DNA of 64,000 nt from Planctomycetota bacterium (GCA_022841245.1 JALHRW010000002.1:3362-67361), one strand, 5' to 3'. Shown: positions 24,548 through 55,491, counted from the stretch's first letter. Translations and numbers: made by a program. Notes: a model not told the origin generated them from the sequence alone.

Positions 24548-26353
24548 TCAGGGGGACAGATCGGCGTCGCGGCCGTGGCTGTGGCGCCATGGCGAATCAG
24601 CGGGGAGATGGCCGTCGCCATCGAGCACCACCTTGCCCTGGACGCCGTTCACATCGACGCCGCAGGCGCGCAGCCCGCTCCACTTCATCACCGTCTTGGA
24701 GTAGCCGGCCTTGATCATCGCAGCCTCGTCGACCAGGTTGCGGTCGCACCAGACGAAGCGCCAGCGGTTGGCGAAGTCGATGCCGGCCGGCACCCGGCTG
24801 GTGAAGAAGCCCTGGTCCGCATCCGCCGGCCGGGCGATGGCGTTGGCCCAGGCGAAGATCAGGCGCTGTTCGCGCGGATAGTCGCGGACCAGGGCCTGGC
24901 ACTCCGGATCGGCGGGGCCGTCGAGGGCCCGGCCAGCCGGATCGACCTTGTCGGGCCCCAACGCGCCGCCGCCCATCATCTGCAGGGCGCCGCGCACGGC
25001 ATTGTGGTGGAACCAGATGTTGCGCACCCAGCCCGGCTGCTTGCCGAGCGTGACGTGCCCGTCGATGAAGTTGTGGTGGATGTCGATGCCGTCGGTGCAG
25101 CCCTGGGCGGAGATGTTGAAATCACCCAGGAACACGTTGTTGCGGTAGGTGTTCTCCCAGCCGTTGTCCTTGTCGCTGATGGTCACGCCGTGGTGCATGC
25201 GTTCGAAGCGGTTGTCCTCGATCAGGCTGCCCTGGGTGGTGTACCAGGTGATGCCGCCGCCATGGCCGGCCTGCTTGAAGGTGTCGTAGGGGCGGTCGGA
25301 GAAGGTGCACTCCTGCACCACCGTGTGGAGGTAGGGTTGCGCCTGCGGCCGTCGGCCGAAGGGGCAGGCCTCCTCCTTCGAGCGCTTTTCCATCCCCGGC
25401 ATGCGTTCGTAGGTCCGCTCGGCGGCATAGCCGAAGATGAACGAGGGATTCTCGCCACCGTCGGCGTACATGTGGTGCAGATTGCAGCGCCGCCAGGTGA
25501 GGCCACGGCGCTGCCCGTGCCACATCACGAACATGTAGTAGTTCGCGTTCTTCACTTCCAGGCCGTCGAAGAGCAGGTCGTCCGTACCCGCGTCGATGAA
25601 GACGCGATGGCCATGGTTCATCGTGGTGACGTTGTCGTACGTCTTCTTGGGATCCGTGGCTGGATCGGCTGCGGCCTTGGCGTCGGCCTCGGCCATCAAG
25701 CCAGCCAGCGTGCTCTTCCACACCGCCTCGGTGAAGCCGAGGTCGATCACCGGCTTGTCGCCGGGCCAGGCCACCCAGCGGCGCGGCGAGGTGTCGGCGA
25801 TGCGCAGCACATTGCGGTTGGTCTTGCCCGGAGTCGCCGGGACCTCGACCAGGTAGGTGCCGCTGCGCAGGTACAACGTCGCCCGGGCGGCATCGGCCAC
25901 CGGTTGGGCGGCGCGCACCACCGTCTTCCACGGCTGCTCGAAGGTGCCGGGGTTGGCATCGTCGCCGGTCGGGCTGACGAAGAAGAACCCCTCCTTCCCC
26001 ACCGTGATGGTGAACGACTGCTCGGCCTTCCTGCTCGCCTGGTCGACCAGGGCCACCGTGACCGGCACCTCGCCCGCGCTCTGCGGAACCTGCCAGGTGA
26101 TGGTGCCCGTCCGGGCATCGATCACCATGCCGGTCGGGCCAGCGCGCAGCATGAATCGGTAGGGCCAGGTGCCGCCGGTTACCGCCGGGCGCATGTTGAA
26201 CTCGACCCCCGGATAGGCCCGCGGCAGTGGCAGCGAGATGAAGGTCGGCTGGCGGAAATAGGGAGCGTCTTCGGGCCGCGCGAAGCGATCGGATTCCTGG
26301 GCTCCAGCCATGAGACACATACTGAGCATTGTCAGAACATGACTTGCGCGCAT
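24548..26353 (-). CDS. secreted Ig-like domain plus right-handed beta-helix protein (family A)
   Basis: ORF 24548..26353. It has a signal peptide. A putative Ig domain follows (YPGVEFNMRPAVTGGTWPYRFMLRAGPTGMVIDARTGTITW). Then comes the pectate-lyase-fold entry motif FFFVSPTGDDANPGTFEQPWKTV. Paralogs lie at 50003 and 52970. Confidence 0.7.
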   Translation of the reverse strand: MRASHVLTMLSMCLMAGAQESDRFARPEDAPYFRQPTFISLPLPRAYPGVEFNMRPAVTGGTWPYRFMLRAGPTGMVIDARTGTITWQVPQSAGEVPVTVALVDQASRKAEQSFTITVGKEGFFFVSPTGDDANPGTFEQPWKTVVRAAQPVADAARATLYLRSGTYLVEVPATPGKTNRNVLRIADTSPRRWVAWPGDKPVIDLGFTEAVWKSTLAGLMAEADAKAAADPATDPKKTYDNVTTMNHGHRVFIDAGTDDLLFDGLEVKNANYYMFVMWHGQRRGLTWRRCNLHHMYADGGENPSFIFGYAAERTYERMPGMEKRSKEEACPFGRRPQAQPYLHTVVQECTFSDRPYDTFKQAGHGGGITWYTTQGSLIEDNRFERMHHGVTISDKDNGWENTYRNNVFLGDFNISAQGCTDGIDIHHNFIDGHVTLGKQPGWVRNIWFHHNAVRGALQMMGGGALGPDKVDPAGRALDGPADPECQALVRDYPREQRLIFAWANAIARPADADQGFFTSRVPAGIDFANRWRFVWCDRNLVDEAAMIKAGYSKTVMKWSGLRACGVDVNGVQGKVVLDGDGHLPADSPWRHSHGRDADLSP

Positions 26354-31693: not shown

Positions 31694-33112
31694 TTACGAT
31701 TTCGCGGTCTGGGCGACCGCCTTCGTCGACTGCGCCTGCGCAGCGTCCCAGCTCGCGCGCAGTCGGCTCGCATCGACCGCCGGGAACGTCTTGCCGCTGC
31801 CGGGCACCAGGCTCTTCTTCTCCAACTTCGGCAGAAGGTCGCCATGGGCCGCGATCATCTCGTCGCACATCTCGACGATGCGGTCCGGGGTCAGGGTCGC
31901 AGCGGTGAGCGGGTCGAACATGCAGGCCTGATAGACGTGGTCACGCCGGCCTTCCATGGCGGCACGGATGAAGAGTTCGTGCTGGATGAGGTGCGGCTGG
32001 ATGTAACCGACCAGCTCGGGCGGCAGCTCGCCGACCCGGGCATGATGCAATCCGGTGCGATCGACCAGGGTCGGAGCCTCGACGATGGCGGTCGGCGGCA
32101 GGTTCGGGATCGTGCCGCCATTGGGCAGGTTGCCGTAGACGACGCGCGGGACCCCGGTGCACATCGCGTGCATGATGGTCGAGCCATATTCATGCGAGAA
32201 CTTCACCTCGGTGACCGGCTCCGAACCGGCGGCGAAGGCCTTCAGCTTCTCGAACTCATGCACGCTGCTGTCGCAGCGCCGGAGGTACTCGTCGATCGGG
32301 ATGCCGAGCTTCGCCTGGCAGCCGCGCCCATGCGGGATGAACCAGCCACTGTATTCCGCAGTGTGCTCGCTGGACTCGGCGACGAAGCGACCAAGGCGCC
32401 GCATCAGTTCGAAGCGGACCTTGTTGGTGTTGTAGATCTCCTCCTGCTCCATCGCCGCGAACAGGCGCGGATACAGATCCACCCCATCCTTCTCCAGCTT
32501 GAGATAGAAGGCCAGATGGTTGATGCCGGCGCAGGTGAAGGCGATCTTGGCCGGATCCTCGCCCAGGTAACCCATGAGCTGGTCGAAGGTGGCCTGGACG
32601 CTGTGGCAGAGGCCGACCGCGCTCAGCCCGGGGGCGGTGCGGAACACGGTCTGCATGTTCATCGACATCGGGTTGGAATAATTGAGCAGCGTGGCGCGCG
32701 GGCAGACCTCCTGCATGTCCCGGCACAGCGACGACAGCATCGGAAATGTGCGCAAGGCGCGGAACAGCCCGCCAGGGCCGGTGGTGTCGGCGATGGTGAA
32801 CTCGAGGCCGAACTTGCGCGGGATCTCGAAGTCGACCAGGGTCGAGTCGAAGCCGCCGATCTGCACCATGTTGATGACGAAATCAGCGCCCTGGAGCGCC
32901 TCGCGACGATCCATCGTTGCCGTGATCGTCGGCTTGGCGCCCATCGCCTCGGCCTGCTTCCGGCAGAGCTGCTGCGAGACCTCGAGCCGCTCGCGGTCGA
33001 TATCCATGTAGGCGATATGGATGTCGCGGAACTCGGGGATTCCGAGGATATCGCCGGTGAGGGCGCGCGAGAAAACCACGCTGCCCGCACCGATCATGGC
33101 GACTTTGATCAT
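31694..33112 (-). CDS. glycoside hydrolase family 4 (NAD/Mn-dependent alpha-glucosidase/alpha-galactosidase type)
   Basis: Within ORF 31694..33556. ATG at 33112 gives MIKVAMIGAGSVVFSRALTGDIL, a typical GH4 Rossmann N-terminus. Also NYSNPMSM and CHSVQ. Confidence 0.8.
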   Translation of the reverse strand: MIKVAMIGAGSVVFSRALTGDILGIPEFRDIHIAYMDIDRERLEVSQQLCRKQAEAMGAKPTITATMDRREALQGADFVINMVQIGGFDSTLVDFEIPRKFGLEFTIADTTGPGGLFRALRTFPMLSSLCRDMQEVCPRATLLNYSNPMSMNMQTVFRTAPGLSAVGLCHSVQATFDQLMGYLGEDPAKIAFTCAGINHLAFYLKLEKDGVDLYPRLFAAMEQEEIYNTNKVRFELMRRLGRFVAESSEHTAEYSGWFIPHGRGCQAKLGIPIDEYLRRCDSSVHEFEKLKAFAAGSEPVTEVKFSHEYGSTIMHAMCTGVPRVVYGNLPNGGTIPNLPPTAIVEAPTLVDRTGLHHARVGELPPELVGYIQPHLIQHELFIRAAMEGRRDHVYQACMFDPLTAATLTPDRIVEMCDEMIAAHGDLLPKLEKKSLVPGSGKTFPAVDASRLRASWDAAQAQSTKAVAQTAKS

Positions 33113-33186
33113 GGATGTGTTCCTGCCCGCATGGGGCGTTCTGCAGAGTTGATACAGGACTGGAATGGAGGGATGGCCCCTGGGAC

Positions 33187-33969
33187 TCAGCGGGACGGCA
33201 GCGCCTGGCCACCGGGCGGATGGGCGGGCAGGTCGACATCGGCCCTCGTGGTACCGAAGACCACGTCGTCGATGTAGAAGTCGGTGTCCTCGGCGAAGCC
33301 GCTGTTGGCGGCACCCAACAGGTAGCCCTGCTTGTAGGCGTGGATGCCGCTTTCCTTGTACAGGGCCACCTGATTGGGGTTGTCGATGATCAGAGTTCCG
33401 TTCTTCCAGATCTGGATCGTCCCCTTCACCTCGGCGGTGGCGGCCTCGCAGTGGATCATGATCCGCATCCACGTCCCGAGGTCGGCGGCGGCAATGAAGT
33501 TCGGATGGCCCTTGCCCGCCTCGCCCATGCCACCGCCGGTGGCATCCCAGTCGCACCTCAGGCGGGAGAATCCGTCGGCCGGGTTGTTGCCCCAGGTCGA
33601 GGCGCCGATCTTCTCCTTGTCGCCGTAGTCAGTGCCCCAGAGGCGGAAGAACTTGTTGTTGGCCCCCCGACGGTGGGTGTAGTTCTTGGGGATGTAGAGC
33701 GAGTACGCGAACCACAGATCACGATACGGCTTGCCGAGGTCGAAGCGCAGCTCGGCCCAGGCGTCGCCATTGGGATCGGGCTTGCCGGTGAAGTGGAAAC
33801 GTGCGGCCTTCGTGCCGCTGACCGCCTGGCCTTCGACGACCGAGACGTGGGGATTGCCGATCCACAGTGGCTTGCCCAGCATACCGCTCTCGAAGTCCTC
33901 TTTGGCGATCTCGCTGCTCCAGGCAGCGCCAGCGAGGAGGCAGCAGAGGGGCAGGATGCGGAGGTTCAT
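33187..33969 (-). CDS. secreted beta-jelly-roll (ConA-like) protein, candidate polysaccharide lyase
   Basis: ORF 33187..33969. Signal peptide MNLRILPLCCLLAGAAWS. C-terminal YLLGAANSGFAEDTDFYIDDVVFG. Confidence 0.55.
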   Translation of the reverse strand: MNLRILPLCCLLAGAAWSSEIAKEDFESGMLGKPLWIGNPHVSVVEGQAVSGTKAARFHFTGKPDPNGDAWAELRFDLGKPYRDLWFAYSLYIPKNYTHRRGANNKFFRLWGTDYGDKEKIGASTWGNNPADGFSRLRCDWDATGGGMGEAGKGHPNFIAAADLGTWMRIMIHCEAATAEVKGTIQIWKNGTLIIDNPNQVALYKESGIHAYKQGYLLGAANSGFAEDTDFYIDDVVFGTTRADVDLPAHPPGGQALPSR

Positions 33970-33988: not shown

Positions 33989-34999
33989 TCAGCACGGGTA
34001 CTTCAGGCAGTAATCGACGAGTTCCTGCACCTTGCAGGTGGCGACGCAGCAGACCGAATCAGCAGCGCCATAGTAGACGAAGAGGGTGTCACCGATGACC
34101 ACGTTGCCGCAGGGGAAGACCACGCGATTCACCGCCCCCTCCAGTTCGAAGGGCTCCTCCGGCTCCATGATGAAGTCCGGGGCGCGGGCGATGATGCGCG
34201 CCGGATCGTAGAGGTCGTGCAGCATGACCCCGGCCCGGTAGGCCTGGCCCTTGCCATCGATGTCGCCCACCGCGTGGTAGATGTCCAGCCAGCCGGCCGC
34301 GGTACGGATGGGCGGGGCGCCGGCGCCGATGCGCAGGGCCTCCCACGGCTGCTCCGAGCGGGCGATGCAACGGTCGCCGGTCCAGGTCTTCAAGTCGTCC
34401 GAGTAGGCGATCCAGATCGCCGGGGTCTTGTACTGCGCGTACTTCTTCTCGGTCCGGTCCAGAGCGCGATGCAGCATCACGTACTTGCCGGCGATCTTCT
34501 CCGGGAACAGCATCACGTCGCGGTTGTCGACATCATCCGGCGTGCACGGCCCCAGGCGGTCGAAGTGGCGCAGGTCCTTCGAGCTGGCGAGGCCCGAGCG
34601 GGTCCAGTTCTCGGTCCAGGTGGGCGTCTGCGCCGGCAGGATCTCGCGCTTGCGCCCGCCCCAGTGGGCATGCGGGGGATGGGCGCGGGCGGCATAGGCG
34701 ACGATGTACTCGTCGCCGAACTTGACGATGCGCGGATCCTCGATGCAGCCGGCGTCCCAGCCCTCGACCGACGGCGCCAGTACCGGCTCGGTCCCGGTGC
34801 GCTCGAAGTGGAAGCCGTCGCGGCTCTCGGCCAGGCCGAGGTAGATGCGGTAGTCGATGTCCTCGCCAGCAGCGCGGTAGAGCAACTTGACCGTACCGTT
34901 GTCGTACCAGGCGCCGGGGTTGAGCACCGCCATCTTCTCCCAGGGGCTGCCGGGACGGGCGCGGAGGATGGGGTTGCCGGGCCATTTCGTGAGACGCAT
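33989..34999 (-). CDS. glycoside hydrolase family 130 (mannoside phosphorylase/hydrolase type)
   Basis: ORF 33989..34999. GH130-like landmarks: NPGAWYDNGTVKLLYRAAG, LGLAESRDGFHFER, GCIEDPRIVKFGDEYIVAY, DNRDVMLFPEK and VVFPCG ... LFVYYGAADS. Confidence 0.8.
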   Translation of the reverse strand: MRLTKWPGNPILRARPGSPWEKMAVLNPGAWYDNGTVKLLYRAAGEDIDYRIYLGLAESRDGFHFERTGTEPVLAPSVEGWDAGCIEDPRIVKFGDEYIVAYAARAHPPHAHWGGRKREILPAQTPTWTENWTRSGLASSKDLRHFDRLGPCTPDDVDNRDVMLFPEKIAGKYVMLHRALDRTEKKYAQYKTPAIWIAYSDDLKTWTGDRCIARSEQPWEALRIGAGAPPIRTAAGWLDIYHAVGDIDGKGQAYRAGVMLHDLYDPARIIARAPDFIMEPEEPFELEGAVNRVVFPCGNVVIGDTLFVYYGAADSVCCVATCKVQELVDYCLKYPC

Positions 35000-35007: not shown

Positions 35008-36486
35008 CTAGGGTTTCGCTGTGGTGATGACGTGGCCCTTGCCGGGCACCGGCTTCACCAGGCTGCCGTCGGGCTTGAGATTGCCCTCGCGGGCATCGAA
35101 CAGCAGGTTGCCGGAGGCTACGATCGCCGAGGCCGGCCCAGTGACGCCGATGTTGTCGACCACGGCGTTCTTGGCGTCCGGCTTGCGGGGTTGGCCGACC
35201 AGCACGTTGTCGCGGAAGGACATGGCCGGGTAGTCCGGCGAGTAATGGAAGAGGTGGATGCGTCCGATGATCGTGTTGCGGTAGATGTAGGACGGAAGTT
35301 CGACCGGAGCCCCGGATTGGTGGATCGTCAGAGCATAGGCATCCGGACCATCGCCGGCCTCGATCAGATTGTAGGCCACTTCCATCTCGCCATAGGGGTT
35401 CGACGACTTCTCGTGGTGGGCGTAGTACAGCCAGACATTCTGCACCGCGTTGCGGGCGAAGCGGTTCTCCCGGATCACCCAGCGCTGGCAGTCCACCTTG
35501 GGGCCGACCGGCAGCGAACTGGTCCCGGTCGGATCATCCATCTCGGTGAAGCTGGAGCGGCCGACCAGCAGCTTCTCGACCGCATAGCCGATGATGCCGT
35601 AGCCGTGATGGACGCGGGTGAAATCGCAGTCGAGAATCGCCCAGCGTTTTCCGTCGCCGCCATTGCAGGCCATGATGCACGACTGGTTGTCCGAACCGGT
35701 GCTCGCGGCGAAGTCGCTGAAGCGGGTGCGCCAGAAGGTGACGTCCGACGAGCTGCCGGTGAGGCGGAAGCCGAACTTCGCGGTCATCGGGCCGACGTCG
35801 AAGCCGTCGAGGTAGAAGTTGTCGAGCGTGCTGTCGGCGAAGAGGAAGCTGCCAGTCAGGTCGAGCTTCGGCCGCGTCCCCGGATAGGCGAGGAACACCA
35901 CCGGTTGGCGCTGCGTCCACTGCACATCGCCGCCGTTGGGCGTCCACCCGTCCAGCAGGTAGGTGCCCTCCTTGACGTAGACGAAGCGATCCTTGTGCGC
36001 TTCGGAGTATTTGCCTTCGCGCGCCTTGGCGCCGTAGACCTGCAGCATGGTCTTGAACGGGGCTTCGCGCGTGCCCGTGCCGCCCTCGGCCGCGGCGGCA
36101 TCGACGAACAGCCAGCCCTCGCTGGTCACCGTGATCGGCCAGCGCACCTGCTGCACGGCCTGCGCCGCATCGGTCACGGTCAGCGTCACCTCGACCTTCC
36201 CCTCGGCGGGGCTCGGCCAGGTGATGACGCCGGTCGCGGCATCGATGGTCATGCCGGCCGGCGCCGCGGTCAGGGCGTAGCGATAGGGGAAGACCCCGCC
36301 GATCGCCGACACCGGGACGCTGTATTCCAGGCCTGGGTAGGCGCGATAGAAGCGGTTGCGCGTGTCGAGGCCGGCGTGCGGCTGGATGATCTCCAGCGCG
36401 AACGGGGTGTAGGCGACGACGCCTTCGGCCGCCTGGATGGCGGCGGCGAGCATGAGCATGGGCAGCAGCAGGCGGTATGGGGTCAT
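35008..36486 (-). CDS. secreted Ig-like plus beta-helix protein (family A-like, tandem array member 4)
   Basis: Within ORF 35008..38049. ATG at 36486 (ATGA overlap) gives the signal peptide MTPYRLLLPMLMLAAAIQA. The Ig-like segment is YPGLEYSVPVSAIGGVFPYRYALTAAPAGMTIDAATGVITW. It is followed by WLFVDAAAAEGGTGTREAPFKTM. Confidence 0.7.
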   Translation of the reverse strand: MTPYRLLLPMLMLAAAIQAAEGVVAYTPFALEIIQPHAGLDTRNRFYRAYPGLEYSVPVSAIGGVFPYRYALTAAPAGMTIDAATGVITWPSPAEGKVEVTLTVTDAAQAVQQVRWPITVTSEGWLFVDAAAAEGGTGTREAPFKTMLQVYGAKAREGKYSEAHKDRFVYVKEGTYLLDGWTPNGGDVQWTQRQPVVFLAYPGTRPKLDLTGSFLFADSTLDNFYLDGFDVGPMTAKFGFRLTGSSSDVTFWRTRFSDFAASTGSDNQSCIMACNGGDGKRWAILDCDFTRVHHGYGIIGYAVEKLLVGRSSFTEMDDPTGTSSLPVGPKVDCQRWVIRENRFARNAVQNVWLYYAHHEKSSNPYGEMEVAYNLIEAGDGPDAYALTIHQSGAPVELPSYIYRNTIIGRIHLFHYSPDYPAMSFRDNVLVGQPRKPDAKNAVVDNIGVTGPASAIVASGNLLFDAREGNLKPDGSLVKPVPGKGHVITTAKP

Positions 36487-37994
36487 TTGCGTCGTCCGTC
36501 GTAGATGTGGTATCCGCGCTGGCCGCGGAACCGCTCCAGCGCAGCGCCTGTCAGTTTTCCGGCCTGATCGACGATGCCGTCCTTGCCATGGCACTCGCCG
36601 TCCCGCACCGCGAAGCCGGCGGAATCGTTGGCCAGTCCGCCTTGCGGGTTCTGCATGACGTTGGCGACGAAGTCGACGTGATTGGACTTCTTCCAATCCT
36701 TGGCCACCACGGCAGCGCCGATGTAGGTGTTGCGATAATCGTGGCACGCTTTGGTCGCGGCGGTGGCCGAGGCGTTCCAGAACGCCGCCGCTCCATCCGC
36801 CCTGGCACGGACGAAGTTGTAGCGGATCTCGCCCGAGGCGGTCCCGTTCTCCACATTGTTGGACGCATCGAGAACCCCGTACGGCGGAGCCCCGGTTCCT
36901 GGATTGTCGAAGCGATGGCGGCGCAGGTCGAAGTCGCAAACCGCCTTCGGGAACCAGACCGGCTCGACGATCTTCGCCTCGGTGGTGGTAAAGACGTCGC
37001 GCTCGGAGAGCAGCGGACCGACGGCATAGAAGACGAACGCGGCGATGTCGACGCAGCCCTCGAAAGTGTTCTCGGCCAGCATCACATGCTTGCGCTTGAC
37101 GCTGCCCTCGGTGCGGGCGCAGAACCAGATGGACTCGTTGTTGTTGACCTTGGGATCGCCGGCGCAGTCGACGAAGCTGTTGCGCCACACGGACAGGCGC
37201 TCGACGTGGTTGTAGGTGGAGATGATGCCGGCATTGCTGATGCGGAAGCCGCGCAGGCGCAGACCGGTCAGCATGATGTCGTTGCTGTTGGCGAGGAATC
37301 GCACCCCGGGCGCCTGGGCGACGATCTCCGGCCGGTCGCCCGGATAGGCCATGATCGAGACCGGCTTGCCCCAGGCCGCCACCAGATGGAAGGCTGTGGT
37401 CAGCGGGTAGCTGCCGGTGGCGAGCACCACCACCTTGCCCTTGGCCGGGCTGGGATCCTTGTCCGAGGCCCCATACACGCCGCTGAAGGCCGCCTGGTCG
37501 GCACGGCTCGATCCATCCCCCTTCCCGGTCGCGACCGGGGCGACGAAATAGTGGTGCTGCTCGTCCACCACCAGGGTCCAGGTGCAGTCGACCGTCTTCC
37601 CCTCCTGATCGGTGATGCGCACCGCGATGGGATGCGTCCCAGCCGATGGCTTCAGCCAGGTGAGCGTGCAGTACGCCGCGTCCTCGGTCAGTTCCCCATC
37701 CGGCTGCTTCGCCAGCCACGAGCCGATGGTCATGCCGGCCGGCCCGGTGACGATCTGGGCGTGGTAGGGATAGGCGCCGAAGGCGGCCCGCACCGGGCAA
37801 TCCCAGCGCATGCCGGGATGGGCGACGCGGTGGTAGGCCTCGGGCGACGTCTCGCTGTCCGGTCGCGGATGGATGGCGGTGAGCGGGAAGCGCGCCGGTT
37901 CGAAATGGCCGGCAGGCAGGCGCCAGTCCTCGGCACCCCAGACGGCGCTGACCAGCAGGACGAGGAGCGTCAGGGGCAGGCGATGATGGTTCAT
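36483..37994 (-). CDS. secreted Ig-like plus beta-helix protein (family B, tandem array member 3)
   Basis: Within ORF 36483..38447. ATG at 37994 (ATGA overlap) gives MNHHRLPLTLLVLLVSAVWGAEDWRLPAGHFEPARF. HHYFVAPVATGKGDGSS marks beta-helix entry. It is a close paralog of 39496..40995. Confidence 0.7.
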   Translation of the reverse strand: MNHHRLPLTLLVLLVSAVWGAEDWRLPAGHFEPARFPLTAIHPRPDSETSPEAYHRVAHPGMRWDCPVRAAFGAYPYHAQIVTGPAGMTIGSWLAKQPDGELTEDAAYCTLTWLKPSAGTHPIAVRITDQEGKTVDCTWTLVVDEQHHYFVAPVATGKGDGSSRADQAAFSGVYGASDKDPSPAKGKVVVLATGSYPLTTAFHLVAAWGKPVSIMAYPGDRPEIVAQAPGVRFLANSNDIMLTGLRLRGFRISNAGIISTYNHVERLSVWRNSFVDCAGDPKVNNNESIWFCARTEGSVKRKHVMLAENTFEGCVDIAAFVFYAVGPLLSERDVFTTTEAKIVEPVWFPKAVCDFDLRRHRFDNPGTGAPPYGVLDASNNVENGTASGEIRYNFVRARADGAAAFWNASATAATKACHDYRNTYIGAAVVAKDWKKSNHVDFVANVMQNPQGGLANDSAGFAVRDGECHGKDGIVDQAGKLTGAALERFRGQRGYHIYDGRRK

Positions 37995-39499
37995 GGGGCG
38001 ATCTCGAAGCCGACCGAGCCGACCCGCGTGCGGTCGACCAGCGTTCCATCCGCCGTGACCACGCCGTCCTTCGGCGCGGCCAGCAGGTTCGGCACCACCG
38101 TCTTCATGCCGGCCACGTCCCAGTGCTTCGCCTGGGCGGTGACCACCACGTTGCCATCGGTCTCGTACGGGATGCGGCCGGGGAAGCGGACGCTGGCGAA
38201 GCCGTTGACGAAGGTGTTGCGGTAGATGAACGAGTTGTAGTGCTGGCCCTTGAAGTGGTCGCTGCCGCAGAACTGCATCGCCGGCCCGTCGGTGCCGCTG
38301 ACCACCACGCGGTTCCAGCAGATCTCGTGATCGTGCGGCAAACCGCCGCCGGCCACGCCATAACCGATCGTGACCTGCCTGCCGCCCACCCGCTCGAAGG
38401 CCTGGTTGGCGCGGATGGTGCTGAAGCCGATGCTGCACTTCAGCCACAGGCCGTAGTCGGTGACGCTGTCGCGGATGGTGTTCTCCTCGACCAGGATGTG
38501 GTTGGCGCGGTAGATGTCGAAGTAATGGCCGTTGCCCTTGCTGTTGCGGATGCCGCTCAGCAGGTTGCCCTTGTAGAGGATGTTCTCCTTGACCGTCTCG
38601 CTGCGCGAGATGAACACCGGTCCGGTGTTGTCGTCGCCGGCGGTGCCCGGTCCCATGTCCGTGAAATGGTTGCGCCAGAAGGTGCAGCGGCTGACCTCGC
38701 CGGTCAGCCAGAAGTAGTGGGCGTTGGCGACATCCTGGCGCGCATTGCGCCAGGTGATGCCGGCGACGAAGATGTCCTGCAGATCGCCGACCATCACCTT
38801 CGAGCGCGAGGCGTCGACCACCGGCACCTCGCCGGGGAAGCCGATCAGGCTGGGGGTCTTGGTCTCGGGCTTCAGCCGCAGGTTGCCCTTCTCCGCCGGG
38901 TTGCCGATCTGCTCGTAGGACCCGCCGCGCAGGACGACGATGCGGTTGCGGAAGGTCGCGTCGTCGACGCTATCCTTGTACCACTCGGCCAGGCTGGCCA
39001 GCGGGGCGTCGATGGTGCCGGTGCGCTCGCCGGTCCAGCCGCTCTTGATGAAGAGGAACGGGGCCGCATCCACCGTCACGCGCCAGACGGCCTCGACGGT
39101 GTGCAGCTCCTGATCGGTGATGCGCACGGTGAAGGTCACCGGATCGGCGGCAGCAGGCGTCCAGCTGACCACGCCGTAATCCGCCTCGCCGGGCAACGCA
39201 CCGATGCGCGCGCCGGCCGGGGCGCCGACCAGTTCATAGCGGAAGGGCCAGGCCCCGCCCTGCACGCCGATCGGGATCTCGTAGCGCATGCCTGGATGGG
39301 CCCAGCGGTGGCGGGCTTGCGTCTGCGTCTCGGCATCAGGCCGCGGAAAGACCAGATGCATGGGCAAGCGCGCCGGGATGAAGCGCCCGGCCGGCAACGG
39401 GAACTCCATGGCCGCAAGCGGCAGGACGGACAGCAGCAGGAGGAAGCAGGCGGGGAGCATGGACATGTGGGACATTCCGCGTGATGACACGTGATTCAT
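37991..39499 (-). CDS. secreted Ig-like plus beta-helix protein (divergent family B, tandem array member 2)
   Basis: Within ORF 37991..39598. ATG at 39499 (ATGA overlap). The signal region is MSMLPACFLLLLSVLPLAA. FPLPAGRFIPARLP parallels the family B N-terminus. Repetitive N-rich turns are typical of parallel beta-helices. Confidence 0.65.
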   Translation of the reverse strand: MNHVSSRGMSHMSMLPACFLLLLSVLPLAAMEFPLPAGRFIPARLPMHLVFPRPDAETQTQARHRWAHPGMRYEIPIGVQGGAWPFRYELVGAPAGARIGALPGEADYGVVSWTPAAADPVTFTVRITDQELHTVEAVWRVTVDAAPFLFIKSGWTGERTGTIDAPLASLAEWYKDSVDDATFRNRIVVLRGGSYEQIGNPAEKGNLRLKPETKTPSLIGFPGEVPVVDASRSKVMVGDLQDIFVAGITWRNARQDVANAHYFWLTGEVSRCTFWRNHFTDMGPGTAGDDNTGPVFISRSETVKENILYKGNLLSGIRNSKGNGHYFDIYRANHILVEENTIRDSVTDYGLWLKCSIGFSTIRANQAFERVGGRQVTIGYGVAGGGLPHDHEICWNRVVVSGTDGPAMQFCGSDHFKGQHYNSFIYRNTFVNGFASVRFPGRIPYETDGNVVVTAQAKHWDVAGMKTVVPNLLAAPKDGVVTADGTLVDRTRVGSVGFEIAP

Positions 39500-40995
39500 G
39501 GGGCGGCGATCTCGCAGCCGCGGCGCCCGAGGAAGCGGCGGCGCAGGTCGCCGGCGAGCCGGCCCTGGGCGTCGACGATGCCGGTCTTGCCATGGCATTC
39601 GTCGGCGGTGACGGTGCAGGCCGCGGCGCTGCGCGGGGAGATGCCGCCGTCGGCGTTCTCGATGACGTTGCCGGCGAAGGCGACGCGAGCCCGCTTGGTG
39701 TGATCGAGGGCCATCACCTTGGCGCCGAGGTAGGTGTTGCGGTAGTCATGGCAGTCGGTGGCGATGGCGGTGGTGGCGTTGTTCCATTTCGCGGTGGCAC
39801 CTTCACCCGGGGCGGTACGCACGAAGTTCCAGCGGATCTCGCCGCTGCTCAGCGGCTGGTCGCCGGAGGTATTGGCGTTGTAGCCGGCCATCACCCCGGA
39901 GCCGGGCGCGACGGTGGCAGAGATGTCACAGACGTGGCGGCGGATGTCGTAGTCGCACATCGACTTGGGGAACCACAGCGGCTCGCTGAGACTGCTCTGG
40001 GTGGTGGTGAACACATCGCGCTCGGAGAGCAGCGGCCCGACCGTATAGAAGTCGAAGATGGCGACATCACGGCAGTCGTGGTAGCGATTCTCGGCCATCA
40101 GCAGGTGGCGGCGCTTCCCCTTGTCCAGACGGCTGCAGTACCAGACCGACTCGTTGTCGCTGATCTTCGGATCGCCGAACAGGCCGGTGAAGGCATTACG
40201 CCACACCGTCAGCCGATGCACGGTGTCGAAGGTGAATATGCAGCCTTTGGGACCGAAGTTCCGCAGATGCAGACCGGCGAGGAAGCCGTCGTCTGACTTG
40301 AAGGCGAATCGCGCCTCGGGCGTGGTGGCGGTTATTTCCGGGGTCTCGCCGGGCATCGCCACGACGGCGGTCGGCTTGCAGCGTGCATCCAGGCGGAATG
40401 CCTGCGCCAGGGTGTAGGCGCCGCCAGCCAGCATCAGCACCTTGCCACAGGCTGGGCTGACCGCCTCATGCGAGTCGCCATACACCGTAGCGAAGGCGGC
40501 GCGGTCCGCTGGGCTTGAGCCGTCGCCCTTCCCAGCCGCCTCCGGACCGGCGAAGTAGTGGTGCAGCGCATCGACGGTCAGCGTCCAGACGCACTCCACC
40601 GATGCACCCTGCTGGTCGGTGATGGTCACGGCGATGCGATGCGTCCCAGCCACCGGGGCTGGCCAGCTCAGAGTGCCATACGCCGGGGTCTCCCGCAGGG
40701 TGCCATCCGGCTGCCGTTCCAGCCAGGCGCCGATGGTCATGCCCTGCGGAGCAGTGGTCAGGCGGTAGTGGTACGGGTAGGAGCCGAATGCCGCGCGCAC
40801 CGGGCAGTCCCAGCGCAGTCCGGGGTGAGCGACGCGGTGGTAGGCCGTCGGGGCGGTCTCGGTCTCGGGCCGAGGGTGGATGGCGGTCAGGGCGAATCGC
40901 GCCGGCTCGAAATGGCCGGCAGGCAGGCGCCAATCCTCCTGGGCAGTGAGCTGCAGGGCGGCCAGCAGCAGGACGCAGGCAGGCAGGTGGCGCAT
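39496..40995 (-). CDS. secreted Ig-like plus beta-helix protein (family B, tandem array member 1)
   Basis: Within ORF 39496..41034. ATG at 40995 gives MRHLPACVLLLAALQLTAQEDWRLPAGHFEPARF. It aligns along its whole length with 36483..37994, including the C-terminal ECHGK(T/D)GIVD motif. Confidence 0.7.
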   Translation of the reverse strand: MRHLPACVLLLAALQLTAQEDWRLPAGHFEPARFALTAIHPRPETETAPTAYHRVAHPGLRWDCPVRAAFGSYPYHYRLTTAPQGMTIGAWLERQPDGTLRETPAYGTLSWPAPVAGTHRIAVTITDQQGASVECVWTLTVDALHHYFAGPEAAGKGDGSSPADRAAFATVYGDSHEAVSPACGKVLMLAGGAYTLAQAFRLDARCKPTAVVAMPGETPEITATTPEARFAFKSDDGFLAGLHLRNFGPKGCIFTFDTVHRLTVWRNAFTGLFGDPKISDNESVWYCSRLDKGKRRHLLMAENRYHDCRDVAIFDFYTVGPLLSERDVFTTTQSSLSEPLWFPKSMCDYDIRRHVCDISATVAPGSGVMAGYNANTSGDQPLSSGEIRWNFVRTAPGEGATAKWNNATTAIATDCHDYRNTYLGAKVMALDHTKRARVAFAGNVIENADGGISPRSAAACTVTADECHGKTGIVDAQGRLAGDLRRRFLGRRGCEIAAP

Positions 40996-41011: not shown

Positions 41012-43300
41012 TCAGCGTGCAGGTACGCGAGCATCGTAATCGTCGGGGTCCGGCCCCTGCAGCGAGCCGACGCCGAAGCCGTCGCCGTCGCAATCCATCA
41101 CCTCCGGACCCGGCGGATCGGAAACGACGTTCGAGAGCAGGCCGGCCTGTCCCGCCTGGTCGATGGCGCGCACGGCCACGTGCCAGGTCTTACCTTTGGG
41201 CAGCCCCTCGAGGATGATGCGCTCCTCTGTACCGCTCTTCTGCGGCGCAGGCGGATTGGCCAGGCGCGTGGCCGTCTCCCAGGTGGAGACGGTCAGCGGC
41301 CGGTCCGACCAGCGGATGTCGTAGGACGCGGCCTGGCCGTGACGGCCATCCTCGCCCGGGGCGCCGAACGACAGCTCGACGGCATTGTCCGAGCTGCGCT
41401 TGAGGCTGCAGAGGATCTTGCGCGGAGCCAGGGTGTCGCCGCAGGTGAAGGTCGCGTCGGGCGTGACCGTGCGGTTGCCCAGGCCATCGACCGCGGTGAC
41501 CCGCCAGTGGTAGGTCCTGCCGACCTCCAGCTTGCCGAGCTTGATGAACGGATAGCGGCCGTCGCCCTTGGCGCTCTTCCCGTACGCAGTCGTTTCCCCG
41601 AACTCGATCGTGGCCTCGACCTCGGTCGACCAGCGACCGCAATACGACGGTTCCTCGGGCTTGTGGAAACGGGTGCTGTAGATGGCCTGCGCCAGGCACT
41701 GCGGGGGATCGGCGCCGGGGCCCGGCGTGATGCGGAAGGCCACCTGCTTGCTCGCACTCTGCTCCCAATCCTTTTCGCGCCAGACGGTGTGCTCGACCAC
41801 CAGATCGTGCTCGCCGGCGGCCATGTCCCGGCGCAGCATGCCGGTGTTGCTGTGGTGGCCCTGCGTCCGGTTCACCCGGTCATGCAGCACTGCGCCATCG
41901 AGAGTGATGCGCAGGCCGTCGTAGGCTGCGAAGCGGACGACGTGCGGCCCGCCGGCGAAGCGCGCCCGCTTGCTGTAGCGGATCGACAGCGCCTGGGTGG
42001 TGTCCAGTCCGAGCTCGGCGTCGACCCCGGGCCAGGATACCGAACTGAGCGACTCGAATGTGCGCACCATGGCCGGGGCGCCGCTGAAGCCGCGGCCGAG
42101 GAAGATCTCGCCCTTCCACGCCCCGGCTGCGCCAGCGGCATCGACCGCCGCCGCCTTGCCGGGGATGAGATCGGGGTACGAGTCGGCGCGGGCGGCGACG
42201 ACCAGCGGCGACGACTCGAGCCGGCGCCCCTTGGCGTCCTCGACGATGGCGACCAGGGCATAGCGCTTGCCGGGTTTCATCCCGGCGAGGTCGACAGCAT
42301 GGAAATAGCCGGGAGCCTCGACCGTACCGGCAGTGGTGACCGCCGTCTTCCGCCAGTCGGGCCCCTCCTCGCCCCACAGCACGGCGATGCTGCGCGCCGG
42401 CACCGTGCTGTCGAAGCGCAGGGTCAGCGCATCGGGCTTGAGCCCGGTCATGCGCAGGCGCTCGATCTGCGCCCGGTTCGGTCCGAACTCGACGAACTGC
42501 TTCGAGATGATCAGGTTGTCGAGCAGGATCTCGAAGGCCGGGTGCGGCGGAGCGGTGAACGACTCGAAGACGTTGGAGACGGTGTCCTTCGGCACATACT
42601 CCATCGAGTGCCAGTAATTGCTGATCCAGAAGGTGTCGAATGAGGAGATGGTGTCGTGCTTGCAGAAATTCGACAGCACGCCATCGACCCACACCTTCAT
42701 GCGTCCGACCGCCGGATCCTTCTGCGACGGCACGATCATCACCTGGTAGGAGTGCCATTCCCCGCGCCGACCCGGCTCATGACCTTCGAACGAGCGCAGG
42801 ATGCGATGATAGCCGGAGCCGCGCAGGACGGAGAAGCCGTGGGGGTCCCATTCCGGATCGAGCCAGGGACGATGGTCGGTGGCATGATCGACCACCGCCA
42901 TGCCGCCGTCCTTGCCGCCCTTCCCCTTGGTCGCATCGAAGAGATAGTAGCCGTGATCGCCGCGACCGATGTAGAAGTTCGCCGGCACCTGCACCATGTA
43001 ATGGGCGAAGAGCACGCCGTCGTGGCGCGGGAAGCGCACCTCGGGGTATGGCGGCAGGCCGTTGTTCTCGACCAGCACATTGCTGTAGCCGAAGCCCGAT
43101 TTCCAGCCGGCTCCGGCGCGCACTCCGTGCCGGCCGGTGATCGAGAACGGCGGCAGGGCGCCGGTCTGTTCACGCCCGGACTCGAAGTCCTCGCAGTAGA
43201 GGTAGTCGGGGTTGCCCTTGTCCGGCAGGACGGCGGTCTCGCCGGCCCAGGCTCCGGCCCCGGCCAGGGCCAGCGATGCAGCCAGGCGCAGGCCGCTCAT
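41012..43300 (-). CDS. secreted multidomain protein: jelly-roll N-domain, FN3-like modules and a PA14-like module
   Basis: Within ORF 41012..43378. ATG at 43300 (ATGA overlap with the ald stop) gives the signal peptide MSGLRLAASLALAGAGAWA. The middle segment WKGEIFLGRGFSG ... FAAYDGLRITLDGAVLHD is PA14-like. The C-terminal FN3-like repeats include YHWRVTAVDGLGN and WHVAVRAIDQAGQ. Confidence 0.6.
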   Translation of the reverse strand: MSGLRLAASLALAGAGAWAGETAVLPDKGNPDYLYCEDFESGREQTGALPPFSITGRHGVRAGAGWKSGFGYSNVLVENNGLPPYPEVRFPRHDGVLFAHYMVQVPANFYIGRGDHGYYLFDATKGKGGKDGGMAVVDHATDHRPWLDPEWDPHGFSVLRGSGYHRILRSFEGHEPGRRGEWHSYQVMIVPSQKDPAVGRMKVWVDGVLSNFCKHDTISSFDTFWISNYWHSMEYVPKDTVSNVFESFTAPPHPAFEILLDNLIISKQFVEFGPNRAQIERLRMTGLKPDALTLRFDSTVPARSIAVLWGEEGPDWRKTAVTTAGTVEAPGYFHAVDLAGMKPGKRYALVAIVEDAKGRRLESSPLVVAARADSYPDLIPGKAAAVDAAGAAGAWKGEIFLGRGFSGAPAMVRTFESLSSVSWPGVDAELGLDTTQALSIRYSKRARFAGGPHVVRFAAYDGLRITLDGAVLHDRVNRTQGHHSNTGMLRRDMAAGEHDLVVEHTVWREKDWEQSASKQVAFRITPGPGADPPQCLAQAIYSTRFHKPEEPSYCGRWSTEVEATIEFGETTAYGKSAKGDGRYPFIKLGKLEVGRTYHWRVTAVDGLGNRTVTPDATFTCGDTLAPRKILCSLKRSSDNAVELSFGAPGEDGRHGQAASYDIRWSDRPLTVSTWETATRLANPPAPQKSGTEERIILEGLPKGKTWHVAVRAIDQAGQAGLLSNVVSDPPGPEVMDCDGDGFGVGSLQGPDPDDYDARVPAR

Positions 43301-44403: not shown

Positions 44404-44419
44404 GTGGACTCCTTGGGTG

Positions 44420-48793: not shown

Positions 48794-48911
48794 GGGAGCA
48801 TCGTACCCGTTCAGCACCGGACCGAGGCCGTGTCCGGCGAGCTGCACGATGACTCAGTCGCGGCAACAACTTGCAACGGAGGTGCGTTGTCGGAGGCCGC
48901 CGACATGGCCC

Positions 48912-49994: not shown

Positions 49995-50002
49995 GACGAT
50001 CC

Positions 50003-51754
50003 TCAGGGTTTCGGCGGTTCGAGGCCAGCATCGCGACCGAAACGCGCACGCCACGGCGAAGCGGCGGGCAGGCGTCCCTCATCGTCGAGGACGACGGCGC
50101 CGCTCGCTCCGTCGATGTCGAAGCAGCCCTTGAGTGCGCTCCACGGCGTGCGCTTGCCGCCCCAGCCGGGGATGAACTCGGCGCGCTCATCGACCAGGTT
50201 GCCGTTCCAGGCGACGTAGCGGAAGGCCTTGGCGAAGCCGCTGTCGTGCGGCAGGCGGGCGAGGAACGGCACCTCCTTGCCGGTCTGCGCCGGCACGGCG
50301 ATGGCGTTGGCCCAGACGTGGATCAGGCGGCGGTCCTTGGGGAAATCGCGGACGATCGCCTGCGCATCGGGGTCGTTGGGCCCGGCCAGCTTGCGGTCGC
50401 CAGCCTCCAACGGCTCGGGCGCGGCGGCCGCCCCGCCCATCAGCGTCACCGAGCCACGCAGGGCGTTGTGGTGGATCCAGATGTTGCGCACCCAGCCCGG
50501 CTGGCTGCCGATCTGCAGGTCGCCGTCGACGAAGTTGTGGTGGAAGTCGATGCCATCGTTGCAGCCCTGGGCGGCGTACATGACGTTGCCCTTGAAGACG
50601 TTGTTGCGCACCGTGTTGTCCCAGCCGTTGTCCTTGTCCATGAAGGCGTGGCCGCGGGTGCGTTCGAAGCGGCTGTCCTCGACCAGCATGCCCTGGGTGG
50701 TGTACCAGTGGAAGCCGGCGCCGGCCTCGCCGAGCACGTCGGAGATGGTGCACTCCTGCAGCACGATGTGGCGGTAGGGCAGCGACTCGGGCCGCTTGCC
50801 GAAGGGGAAGGTCTCGCCGGGTGCGGCCTTCTCGTACTTCCGCTCGGCGGCGAAGCCGAAGATGAACGAGGAGTTCTCGCGCCAGTCGCCCCACAGGTGG
50901 TGCAGCTTGCAGCGCCGCCAGGTCAGGCCGCTGCGCTTGCCGTCCCACATGACGAACATGTAGAAGCAGGCGTTGCGGAACTCCAGGCCGTCGAAGACCA
51001 GGCCGTCGACCTGGTGGTCGATGTAGACGCGGTGGCCGTAGCCGGTGGTCGAGGCCCCCTCCTTCTTCACCGCGCGCTCGGCGGCCAGGGCCGCCGACCA
51101 CTTCTCCTCGCTCCAGCCGAGGTCGATCACCGGCTGCTCGCCCGGCCAGGCCGCCCAGCGCCGTGGCGAGGTCTTGCCGATGGTCAGGACGTTGGCGTTC
51201 TTCTTGCCCGCCGCGGCGGGCACCTCGACCGCATAGGTGCCGCCACGCAGGTACAGCGTGGTGCCGGCCGGATCTTCCACCGGCTGCGTCGCGCGCATCA
51301 CCGTCTTCCACGGCTTGGCGAAGGTGCCGGGATTGGCGTCGTCGCCCTCGGGGCCGACGAAGACGAAACCCGCGGTTCCCACCGCGATGCTGAAGGTCTG
51401 CTCGGCCTGCCGTCCGGCCAGGTCGGCCACCGTCACGGTCACGGGCACGCTGGCCTCGGCCTGCGGCGCCGTCCAGGTGATCGCACCGCTGCGCGGGTCG
51501 ATGGCCATGCCGGCCGGCGCCCCGCGCAGGGCGAAGCGGTACGGCCAGGTGCCGCCGGTCACCGCCGCACGCGCCTCGTAGCGCGCGCCGGGATAGGCGC
51601 GCAGCGGCGGCGAGGTGATGAAGGCCGGCTGGGCGAAGGCCGGCGCGTCCTCGGGCCGGACGTAGCGGGCATCGCCCTCGGCGGCGCCGAGGCAGGCGGT
51701 GAGCAGCAGACAGGCGAGTGTGAAGCGATGCATGGTTCCGTTCCCAGGTTTCAT
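50003..51754 (-). CDS. secreted Ig-like plus beta-helix protein (family A)
   Basis: Within ORF 50003..51784. ATG at 51754 (ATGA overlap); an alternative ATG lies at 51733. The Ig-like segment is YPGARYEARAAVTGGTWPYRFALRGAPAGMAIDPRSGAITW. It is followed by FVFVGPEGDDANPGTFAKPWKTV. Confidence 0.7.
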   Translation of the reverse strand: MKPGNGTMHRFTLACLLLTACLGAAEGDARYVRPEDAPAFAQPAFITSPPLRAYPGARYEARAAVTGGTWPYRFALRGAPAGMAIDPRSGAITWTAPQAEASVPVTVTVADLAGRQAEQTFSIAVGTAGFVFVGPEGDDANPGTFAKPWKTVMRATQPVEDPAGTTLYLRGGTYAVEVPAAAGKKNANVLTIGKTSPRRWAAWPGEQPVIDLGWSEEKWSAALAAERAVKKEGASTTGYGHRVYIDHQVDGLVFDGLEFRNACFYMFVMWDGKRSGLTWRRCKLHHLWGDWRENSSFIFGFAAERKYEKAAPGETFPFGKRPESLPYRHIVLQECTISDVLGEAGAGFHWYTTQGMLVEDSRFERTRGHAFMDKDNGWDNTVRNNVFKGNVMYAAQGCNDGIDFHHNFVDGDLQIGSQPGWVRNIWIHHNALRGSVTLMGGAAAAPEPLEAGDRKLAGPNDPDAQAIVRDFPKDRRLIHVWANAIAVPAQTGKEVPFLARLPHDSGFAKAFRYVAWNGNLVDERAEFIPGWGGKRTPWSALKGCFDIDGASGAVVLDDEGRLPAASPWRARFGRDAGLEPPKP

Positions 51755-54724: not shown

Positions 54725-54728
54725 GTTA

Positions 54729-54747
54729 GGTGCCCCCATGGTGCACC
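54729..54747 (-). promoter_or_regulatory. GGTGCACC element upstream of the second beta-helix operon
   Basis: The minus strand reads GGTGCACCATGGGGGCACC (54747-54729), then TAAC, then the ATG at 54724. Confidence 0.5.
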
Positions 54748-55226: not shown

Positions 55227-55317
55227 GGGCGCTGGGCCCTGGTCGCTGGGCGCTGGGCGCTGGGCGCTGGGCGCTGGGCGCTGGGCGCTGGGCGCTGGGC
55301 GCTGGGCGCTGGTCCGC
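55227..55317 (+). repeat. heptanucleotide tandem array R1, unit GGGCGCT (13 units, 9 of them perfect at 55248-55310)
   Basis: Counted directly: GGGCGCT GGGCCCT GGTCGCT, then 9 x GGGCGCT, then GGTCCGC. Confidence 0.95.
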
Positions 55318-55428
55318 AAGCGTAGGATGAAGCTGCAGTTCGGCTCCTTGCTACACCTACCTTACCGCACGTGCTCGGCATCAAGGCGATGGTCTCGGAA
55401 CCCCATACCACGCGCAGGAGCAGGCCAC

Positions 55429-55491
55429 CCAGCGGCCAGCAGCCAGCAGCCAGCAGCCAGCGGCCAGCGGCCAGCAGCCAGCAGCCAGCGG
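55429..55491 (+). repeat. heptanucleotide tandem array R2, unit CCAGC(G/A)G (9 units, 63 bp), approximately the reverse complement of R1
   Basis: Counted directly: CCAGCGG, CCAGCAG x3, CCAGCGG x2, CCAGCAG x2, CCAGCGG. The reverse complement C(C/T)GCTGG matches the R1 phase GCGCTGG at 5-6 of 7 positions. Confidence 0.95.

Follow-up and report, generated by a model that had tools for sequence, protein, structure and literature searches.

Four tandem Ig-like/beta-helix paralogs in a Planctomycetota genome: candidate glycan depolymerases of a probably new family

We analysed a 64,000-nucleotide stretch of DNA (hereafter the window) from a Planctomycetota bacterium (GCA_022841245.1 JALHRW010000002.1:3362-67361), in which four consecutive genes, m1 to m4, form a tandem array between positions 35,008 and 40,995. 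Their products combine a signal peptide, an immunoglobulin (Ig)-like domain and a predicted right-handed parallel beta-helix. The four are true paralogs, with similarity far beyond chance, and they belong to a family that, although its fold is familiar, is probably new in the CAZy sense. On balance, and with no great certainty, we take m1-m4 to be independent secreted, endo-acting glycan depolymerases that would differ in linkage specificity and act on an acidic polymer resembling a bacterial exopolysaccharide (EPS). The locus is a paralog expansion of a large, uncharacterised beta-helix family, of a kind familiar in bacteria of the Planctomycetes-Verrucomicrobia-Chlamydiae (PVC) group.

The four genes are head-to-tail open reading frames (ORFs) on the minus strand with one terminal stop each. 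Their GC content at third codon positions (GC3, 0.86-0.92 vs 0.47-0.54 at second positions, GC2) fits genuine coding sequences of a 68% GC genome, the window as a whole having about 68% GC. The four proteins show homology from end to end. By BLASTP, m1 and m3 are 57% identical over 481 amino acids (E=0), m2 is 29-32% identical to m1 and m3 (E 1e-38 to 1e-42), and m4 is 26-28% identical to the other three over 400-490 aligned residues (E 1e-22 to 1e-26). These values bear out the initial annotation, which was made from the sequence alone and had paired m1 with m3 and called m2 divergent. It had also pointed to a C-terminal motif shared by m1 and m3, ECHGK(T/D)GIVD..G(K/R)L, which is conserved across their 12 homolog clusters. 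The likeness it had seen between m4 and longer paralogs elsewhere in the window (‘family A’) holds only for the N-terminal 170-255 residues, about a third of the protein, whereas m4 aligns with m1-m3 over the greater length given above.

All four N-termini carry one or more basic residues, a hydrophobic core of 10-14 residues (Kyte-Doolittle 2.5-2.95) and a cleavage region of small residues. Sequence inspection of m1-m4 detected no lipobox or C-terminal anchor, and neither a PEP-CTERM signal nor a repeat architecture was found in them. The beta-helix entry motif (YF/LF..P...G.G.GS/T...P/A) is present in each of the four proteins, as first proposed, and the Ig-domain pattern quoted at that time is also found in the proteins.

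AlphaFold2 (AF2) models of m1 and m4, built from alignments of 88 and 66 family sequences, reached a mean predicted local distance difference test score (pLDDT) of 89.6 and 93.1 and a predicted template modelling score (pTM) of 0.91 and 0.92, respectively. Each model consists of a low-confidence N-terminal helix (the signal peptide), a beta-sandwich of about 90 residues and a long, regular series of at least 25 short strands, which we read as a right-handed parallel beta-helix; for m2 and m3 we infer the same helix by homology. The gene coordinates and the three-part architecture proposed initially are thus borne out by the ORFs, by the m1 and m4 models and by homology, and the beta-helix is predicted with high confidence.

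Foldseek searches of the PDB matched the sandwich of m1 and m4 to Rib, SraP and cadherin-type Ig-like domains (TMt 0.45-0.66), and the neighbours of the C-terminal domain were beta-helix proteins only (glycan enzymes, tailspikes and virion proteins). For m1 these included a GH87 alpha-1,3-glucanase (E 3e-4), adenovirus LH3, GH49, YbhC, PL6 chondroitinase B and the phage LKA1 tailspike (LKA1 gp49). The best neighbour of m4 was the PL9 rhamnogalacturonan lyase 5olq (E 5.7e-6, TMq 0.41, TMt 0.47), with a GH28 exo-polygalacturonase (2e-5), GH136, Dex49A, PL1, AlgG and PL6 as further matches. None of the structures in the PDB library, which covered those released up to April 2026, is close to m1 or m4. 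Among predicted viral structures (BFVD), the best matches were beta-helix proteins of Rhizobium phages (E 1e-10 to 2.5e-8, TM about 0.4).

Sequence searches gave no family placement. In a Pfam scan at E<=1, m1-m4 matched He_PIG (PF05345) and nothing else, so that models for pectate lyases or Pel9A-like proteins were not matched at this threshold. The He_PIG scores were 42.2 bits for m4, 14.2 for m1 and 13.3 for m2, with no match for m3 (gathering threshold 24 bits). The Ig domain proposed in the initial annotation is accordingly a significant Pfam hit in m4 alone, sub-threshold in m1 and m2 and absent from the m3 search, and the Ig-like fold of m1 and m4 comes from the models. Of the 88 aligned family members, 49 match He_PIG and 11 the generic Beta_helix model PF13229 (Pfam, E<=0.01), and none matches a catalytic or specific lyase family at that threshold. 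NCBIfam and PHROGs searches of m1-m4 returned no match, nor did phmmer sequence searches of the PDB. Profile searches of the PDB with the A1 and A4 alignments returned Ig-domain fragments and a GH110 stretch alone. We rejected GH110 as a family placement, given that the match covers about 57 residues (two rungs; E 2e-4 with the A4 profile, 0.027 with A1) and is not full-length.

Motifs of known beta-helix enzymes are likewise missing. The PL1 vWiDH motif is absent from m1-m4. The catalytic motifs of GH28 are NTD, DD, GHG and RIK; this set is absent from m1-m4, with isolated chance matches to GSG (m1) and GDD (m2), and the Glyco_hydro_28 profile matches neither m1-m4 nor any of the 88 members. 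DPHD, the catalytic motif of the AlgG/AlgE mannuronan C5-epimerases, and QDT, the CE8 motif, do not occur in m1-m4, and no AlgG/AlgE profile match was found. The earlier statement that the proteins could not be placed in a named CAZy family therefore stands after Pfam, NCBIfam, PHROGs, PDB sequence and profile, and Foldseek searches, none of which led to a characterised family with confidence.

The family is large. When a profile built from the 88-sequence alignment was run against 1.84 billion cluster representatives, 16,118 proteins matched at E<=1e-3, 6,466 at E<=1e-10 and 1,891 at E<=1e-30, and at this last threshold the family comprises about 1,900 clusters at 50% identity. The top matches are mostly 490-620 amino acids long and align end to end; many other matches are He_PIG repeat proteins of 3,000-5,700 amino acids. 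Members only 20-25% identical still share several invariant charged residues. The names assigned to homologs automatically in databases (‘pectate lyase’, ‘parallel beta helix pectate lyase-like protein’, ‘Ig domain-containing protein’) reflect the fold only.

A neighbour-joining tree resolved three clades, represented by m2, m4 and m1/m3. The m2 clade is the most widespread, with members in Cellvibrio, Salinimonas, Reinekea, Flavivirga, Thiodiazotropha and many metagenomes. We found 130 homolog clusters for m2, the closest outside the lineage being 59% identical (Cellvibrio), and m2 matches the family profile over its full length with 634 bits. Recent horizontal transfer of m2 from Gammaproteobacteria was considered and rejected: it has no compositional support, as the GC3 of m2 (0.92) matches that of its neighbours, and m2 orthologs 85-95% identical adjoin m1 orthologs in relatives. 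For m4 there are 61 homolog clusters, in a clade that includes Thioalkalivibrio, Pseudomonadales and others. The 12 homolog clusters of m1 (90% identity clustering; 54-98% identity) make up the whole m1/m3 clade. A scan for m1/m3 peptide patterns found this clade in one of 185,579 species genomes, an uncultured Lentisphaerales metagenome-assembled genome (MAG; L001), which suggests a Lentisphaerales-like lineage for the window too. The orthologs of m3 (P0007 and P0008, 89% identical in the Lentisphaerales MAG) are distinct from those of m1, which indicates that the duplication giving rise to m1 and m3 is old and that both copies were kept.

Duplication is also seen elsewhere in the family. Flavivirga jejuensis (L007 10001-13581) carries two m2-type genes in tandem outside any EPS locus, 400 nucleotides apart and with 47% identity to m2 in each case, so that tandem duplication recurs in the family in unrelated phyla. 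Four database proteins of 1,031-1,358 amino acids (P0195, P0197, P0201 and P0307) contain two complete Ig + beta-helix modules per chain. These are either true fusions of tandem paralogs or ATGA-type junctions frameshifted in metagenome assemblies; they show that tandem copies are able to function side by side, though not that they have to.

Outside the Lentisphaerales, most of the homologs sampled lie among genes for polysaccharide production. In seven of the eight contexts (Cellvibrio fibrivorans, Salinimonas marina, Thioalkalivibrio and four metagenomic contigs), an m2- or m4-type homolog is part of an EPS biosynthesis locus. Loci of the exosortase type have been associated with the formation of flocs and biofilms by environmental bacteria. 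The eighth context is that of the two tandem Flavivirga copies, which has no EPS genes. The seven loci share a core of polysaccharide deacetylases (Polysacc_deac_1), GT4, an LMWPc phosphatase and Wzy_C, usually with ATPgrasp_Ter and often also with CapK-like ligases, sulfotransferases and APS kinase. One locus (L012) encodes Exosortase_EpsH. In the Salinimonas locus (L005) PrsT scores above the NCBIfam cut-off, with other models of the XrtA/PEP-CTERM system below their cut-offs. The family is thus a regular and apparently undescribed component of exosortase-type EPS loci, a locus type described by Haft et al. 2006 (PMC1569441), where a beta-helix gene is not mentioned.

In the window itself, domain scans found no glycosyltransferase, Wzy or exosortase gene, and the family copies do not lie inside an exosortase-associated EPS locus. 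Instead, m1-m4 belong to a run of about 21 closely spaced or overlapping genes on the minus strand, which extends over about 31 kb, from about 54.7 kb down to 23.5 kb (Table 1). The run begins with two longer paralogs, each followed by an ORF with no Pfam match, and continues with a DAO-type oxidoreductase, a 347-amino-acid protein, GH20, alanine dehydrogenase and the fn3 protein. Downstream of m1-m4 come GH130, the PF14099 lyase, GH4, a major facilitator superfamily (MFS) transporter, a PcRGLX-like protein, a phosphotriesterase-family protein, the third longer paralog and a 337-amino-acid protein. On the plus strand, convergent with this operon, are genes for a heparinase II/III-like protein, a PIG-L de-N-acetylase, a GntR/PBP regulator and a GFO/IDH/MocA oxidoreductase. 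The locus has three lyase-like genes. No terminator-like site was detected on the minus strand between 30 and 46 kb, and the promoter/terminator scan of this interval yielded no site above the shuffled expectation. From this gene content, we predict that the region is a catabolic island for an acidic, amino-sugar-containing polymer.

The initial annotation had counted eight beta-helix proteins in the window; the family profile finds seven, m1-m4 and the three longer paralogs. The latter match the profile to position ~365 only, with an insert of about 40-60 amino acids after the first rungs and a different C-terminal half, and are likely to form a separate subfamily with its own specificity.

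Table 1. Coordinates of the four-gene array and of other features in the window
Feature	Position	Strand	Remarks
m1 (member 1)	39496..40995	minus	499 aa; ORF and translation
m1 signal peptide	40939-40995 (aa 1-19)	minus	
m1 N-terminal strand and Ig-like domain	40567-40938 (to ~aa 143)	minus	AF2 model, Foldseek
m1 right-handed beta-helix (predicted)	39499-40560 (aa ~146-499)	minus	AF2 model, Foldseek
m2 (member 2)	37991..39499	minus	502 aa; architecture as in m1
m3 (member 3)	36483..37994	minus	503 aa; 57% identical to m1
m4 (member 4)	35008..36486	minus	492 aa; signal peptide ~aa 1-20
m4 He_PIG domain	36127-36345 (aa 48-120)	minus	Pfam E 1.1e-10
m4 beta-helix (predicted)	35011-36117 (aa ~124-492)	minus	AF2 model
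ATGA overlap m1/m2	39496..39499	minus	Sequence read directly; same 4-nt overlap in relative L010 (8506-8509)
ATGA overlap m2/m3	37991..37994	minus	Sequence
ATGA overlap m3/m4	36483..36486	minus	Sequence
fn3-domain protein	41012..43300	minus	762 aa; ends 16 nt before m1 start; start overlaps (ATGA) alanine dehydrogenase; syntenic in L001 and L010
GH130 (beta-mannoside phosphorylase/hydrolase family)	33989..34999	minus	PF04041, 6.5e-49; 8 nt past m4 stop; after family genes in both relatives
Polysaccharide lyase	33187..33969	minus	PF14099
GH4 glycosidase	31694..33142	minus	Pfam
Longer paralog (‘family A’)	24548..26353	minus	601 aa; tblastn; He_PIG 3.8e-11; family profile 161 bits, positions 59-363
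Longer paralog (‘family A’)	50003..51754	minus	583 aa from ATGA-overlapped start; He_PIG 2.1e-11
Longer paralog (‘family A’)	52970..54739	minus	589 aa; BLAST, family profile

Some further genes of the operon bear on its possible substrate. The alanine dehydrogenase (43297-44463, minus) and the DAO-type FAD oxidoreductase (47693-48847, minus) lie inside the operon, and the Lentisphaerales MAG carries an alanine racemase gene in the equivalent position (L001 6807-7943). Together with the ATP-grasp and CapK-like ligases of the EPS loci, these genes hint at a target polymer with amino-acid substituents, perhaps alanine. The ORFs of the operon without a Pfam match, of 337-405 amino acids, are located at 23519-24532, 46471-47514, 48912-50054 and 51751-52968 (all minus). 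The 347-amino-acid ORF adjoins GH20 in contig L010 too, and in the MAG (L001) an ORF of 352 amino acids is found two genes upstream of GH20; this recurrence suggests that the ORF is probably a conserved pathway component of an uncharacterised kind.

Elsewhere in the window we identified a 546-amino-acid protein (55225-56865, plus) with TPR repeats and two RNA polymerase alpha-subunit C-terminal domains (PF03118, E 1e-30), which is unusual for a protein other than RpoA. Genes for a 1,002-amino-acid Ser/Thr kinase, a transglutaminase-like protein, a 967-amino-acid protein and a protein with a prepilin-type N-methylation motif are joined by three ATGA overlaps (4921-12993, minus), with two further N_methyl proteins at 13337-16011. 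A phosphate-type ABC system (58543-63605, plus) comprises a PstS-like PBP_like_2 protein and two permeases of unusual length (752 and 549 amino acids, with one BPD_transp_1 domain each).

We propose that m1-m4 are co-transcribed within the long catabolic operon, with translation probably coupled by termination-reinitiation at the stop/start overlaps. The products would be exported by the Sec pathway as soluble proteins, each with an N-terminal Ig-like (He_PIG-type) domain and a single right-handed beta-helix; they come from three old subfamilies. The groove of the helix may bind a polysaccharide chain, with the Ig-like domain as a spacer or binding module. Each protein would then act as an endo-acting depolymerase, whether lyase or hydrolase, and the paralogs would accept different linkages or decorations, so that jointly they could open a complex acidic, amino-sugar-containing heteropolysaccharide, most likely a bacterial EPS of the exosortase-associated type. 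The GH130, GH4, GH20, de-N-acetylase and lyase-like enzymes would process the resulting fragments. A precedent is WceF, a beta-helix protein encoded in an EPS locus that has been shown to act as a glycosidase on its own EPS (PMC7949094). In EPS producers a single copy of the family may similarly trim the cell's own polymer, as WceF does with stewartan, and the multiplied copies in the window may attack a foreign one. That the He_PIG + beta-helix family is a new carbohydrate-active enzyme family, that its ancestral role was the trimming or cleavage of EPS made by exosortase/PEP-CTERM-type loci, and that the Lentisphaerales lineage captured and multiplied such genes (seven copies from at least three subfamilies) in an operon dedicated to feeding on the EPS of other bacteria is a possible, rather speculative, scenario.

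The residues conserved family-wide are, in m1 numbering, Y317, E325, R352, E386, N390, R419-N420-T421 and N443; a Lys column equivalent to K344 is conserved in the m2 and m4 clades and shifted by one column in m1/m3. They occur in the motifs Y..LLVExN, GPK....W.IRxN, EIxxN and YRNT, on successive rungs and at fixed offsets from an Asn ladder. We considered Y317/E325/K344/R352/E386/R419 as a catalytic set and rejected it as unproven, since the regular Asn-ladder offsets fit a structural stack.

Several observations speak against the assignment of m1-m4 as depolymerases. The conserved residues just listed may, at least in part, form a structural Glu/Arg stack instead of an active site. The m4 orthogroup (P0134-P0141) has Gly (G309 in m4) at the equivalent of E325, which is Glu in 91% of the family, and the Asn that follows in the LLVExN motif is replaced by Ser; the Gly substitution may mean changed or lost activity in this group. 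Lyases of PL9, PL1 and PL3 have conserved acidic Ca2+ ligands and a Lys/Arg base in the groove; among the 88 sequences no Asp column of the beta-helix domain reaches 75% conservation, which leaves the Ca2+-dependent site of these lyases without an evident counterpart. No unsaturated uronyl hydrolase of the GH88/GH105 type, an enzyme that would argue for lyases, was seen in the window. Likeness to any characterised enzyme structure is weak (TM <=0.47). Our literature searches turned up no paper on the He_PIG + beta-helix family; what they yielded was WceF as a precedent, an unstudied beta-helix gene from an EPS cluster of Burkholderia, and the paper that first described PEP-CTERM/EpsH.

The single-copy conservation of homologs in biosynthesis loci would also fit an enzyme that modifies the polymer. 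Under such a reading, m1-m4 would be C5-epimerases similar to AlgG/AlgE, or carbohydrate esterases on a beta-helix scaffold, that remodel the substrate before lyases cut it. The homologs hold the place in EPS loci that AlgG holds in alginate loci, both AlgG (4ozy) and E. coli YbhC, which we take to be a CE8-like protein, are among the weak Foldseek neighbours, and the three lyase-like genes of the operon could do the cutting. We nevertheless consider this unlikely, as seven copies in one catabolic island are hard to explain for an epimerase or esterase, the Foldseek scores of AlgG are marginal (E ~0.01, TM 0.19-0.26), and all four proteins lack the DPHD and QDT motifs. Slightly less probable again is a non-catalytic role as glycan-binding or surface proteins, that is, beta-helix lectins or adhesins on an Ig-like stalk that capture the polymer for the true enzymes. 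He_PIG is common in giant adhesin-like proteins, such as the long repeat proteins among the profile matches, the possibly structural nature of the conserved polar residues and the loss of a highly conserved Glu in the m4 orthogroup would agree with this role, and WceF shows lectin-like agglutination with its substrate (PMC7949094). Against it, m1-m4 lack the anchor, lipobox, PEP-CTERM and repeat architecture mentioned above, the compact helix of about 350 amino acids keeps invariant charged residues at 20-25% identity, and every close structural neighbour of known function is an enzyme.

The junctions of the array raise the further question of whether the products act as one complex. At all three, the stop codon TGA of one gene and the start codon ATG of the next overlap (m1/m2 CCCATGAAT, m2/m3 CCCATGAAC, m3/m4 AAATGACC), as the initial annotation had read from the sequence. 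It had concluded from these overlaps that the proteins are co-translated stoichiometrically, and in its strongest form this would mean a fixed hetero-oligomer of the m1-m4 products with equimolar synthesis enforced by the overlaps. No Shine-Dalgarno sequence is obvious at the junctions, which makes coupled translation of the downstream genes probable; two complete modules are fused in P0195, P0197, P0201 and P0307; and many beta-helix tailspikes, as well as WceF, are oligomers. We nonetheless regard such a complex as highly improbable. Four-base start/stop overlaps occur at at least 13 junctions in the window, some of them between unrelated genes (for example alanine dehydrogenase/fn3, 347-amino-acid protein/GH20 and the kinase/transglutaminase/unknown string), translational coupling alone does not give equimolar output, and the family is single-copy in most genomes.

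The composition of the array also varies in close relatives, where its genes are separated or missing. Contig L010 reads m4 (95% identity), fn3 protein, 347-amino-acid protein, GH20, m1 (84%), m2 (85%), GH130 and MFS. The Lentisphaerales MAG has a family-A paralog followed, after an interval, by m3 (89%), a second m1/m3-type gene, m4 (88%), GH130, a lyase and the fn3 protein and, further on, GH20 and a third m1/m3-type gene; the MAG has no m2. The m1-m2 pair is the only one directly adjacent in another contig (L010), m3 and m4 occur within one array in the MAG with the second m1/m3-type gene between them, and the four-gene array is specific to this genome. The overlaps at so many junctions and the variation of the array leave the stoichiometric-complex inference unsupported, and the overlaps are best read as ordinary translational coupling in a compact operon. 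The varied membership and order of the array, together with the separate orthologs of m1 and m3, argue for paralogs that act independently, as we propose for m1-m4 as depolymerases.

If m1-m4 are active depolymerases, they would define a new enzyme family of about 1,900 clusters that has no curated model, would offer a first functional entry point to a gene that is conserved in exosortase-type EPS loci but has been ignored, and would point to how PVC-group bacteria recycle bacterial exopolysaccharides. Should the capture of an EPS-trimming gene prove true, the locus would be a genetic marker for the degradation of bacterial EPS, such as the floc or biofilm matrix, and an enzyme source for a class of polymers without known depolymerases. 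If they are inactive, the locus would be another expansion of beta-helix paralogs in a polysaccharide utilisation island, which are common in Lentisphaerae, Verrucomicrobia and Planctomycetes.

Among known systems, PL9 (BT4170, PDB 5olq/5olr; Pel9A) resembles m1-m4 as a secreted right-handed beta-helix and is the best PDB neighbour of m4; the N-terminal cap motif is similar to the entry motif of Pel9A/PelN. In the cap region, the longer paralogs of the window and some homologs of m4 give sub-threshold matches to PF22842 and to the NCBIfam PelN model. PL9 catalysis is defined by a Ca2+ site; m1-m4 have no significant PL9 profile match, 14% identity and no beta-helix Asp column at 75% conservation, PL9 is absent from the Foldseek neighbours of m1, and PL9 enzymes have no He_PIG domain. 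The Yersinia GH28 enzyme YeGH28 (PDB 2uve) is a beta-helix hydrolase and the second-best neighbour of m4 (E 2e-5), and presumably also has an N-terminal FN3/Ig-like domain. It differs in its low similarity (TM 0.29-0.39, identity 9-10%), and m1-m4 lack a Glyco_hydro_28 match and the GH28 motifs. The GH110 alpha-1,3-galactosidases (7jwf, 8pvs) provided the only non-Ig match in the PDB profile searches, which is short (~57 residues) and below family-level significance, and they are not among the top Foldseek neighbours.

Phage depolymerase tailspikes that act on EPS or capsules share the beta-helix body, as in the Rhizobium-phage matches (E 1e-10 to 2.5e-8). They differ from m1-m4 in that the TM is about 0.4, no PHROGs match was found, no phage genes lie nearby, and m1-m4 have no trimerisation or particle-binding domains. 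WceF of Pantoea stewartii (WceF/AmsF) is a tailspike-like trimer outside the top 50 Foldseek neighbours of m1 and m4 and without detected sequence similarity, and the copies in the window lie in a catabolic, not a biosynthetic, locus; the relationship is one of functional analogy only. That analogy consists in a beta-helix protein encoded in an EPS cluster that cuts its own EPS (PMC7949094), a position analogous to that of the m2 and m4 homologs.

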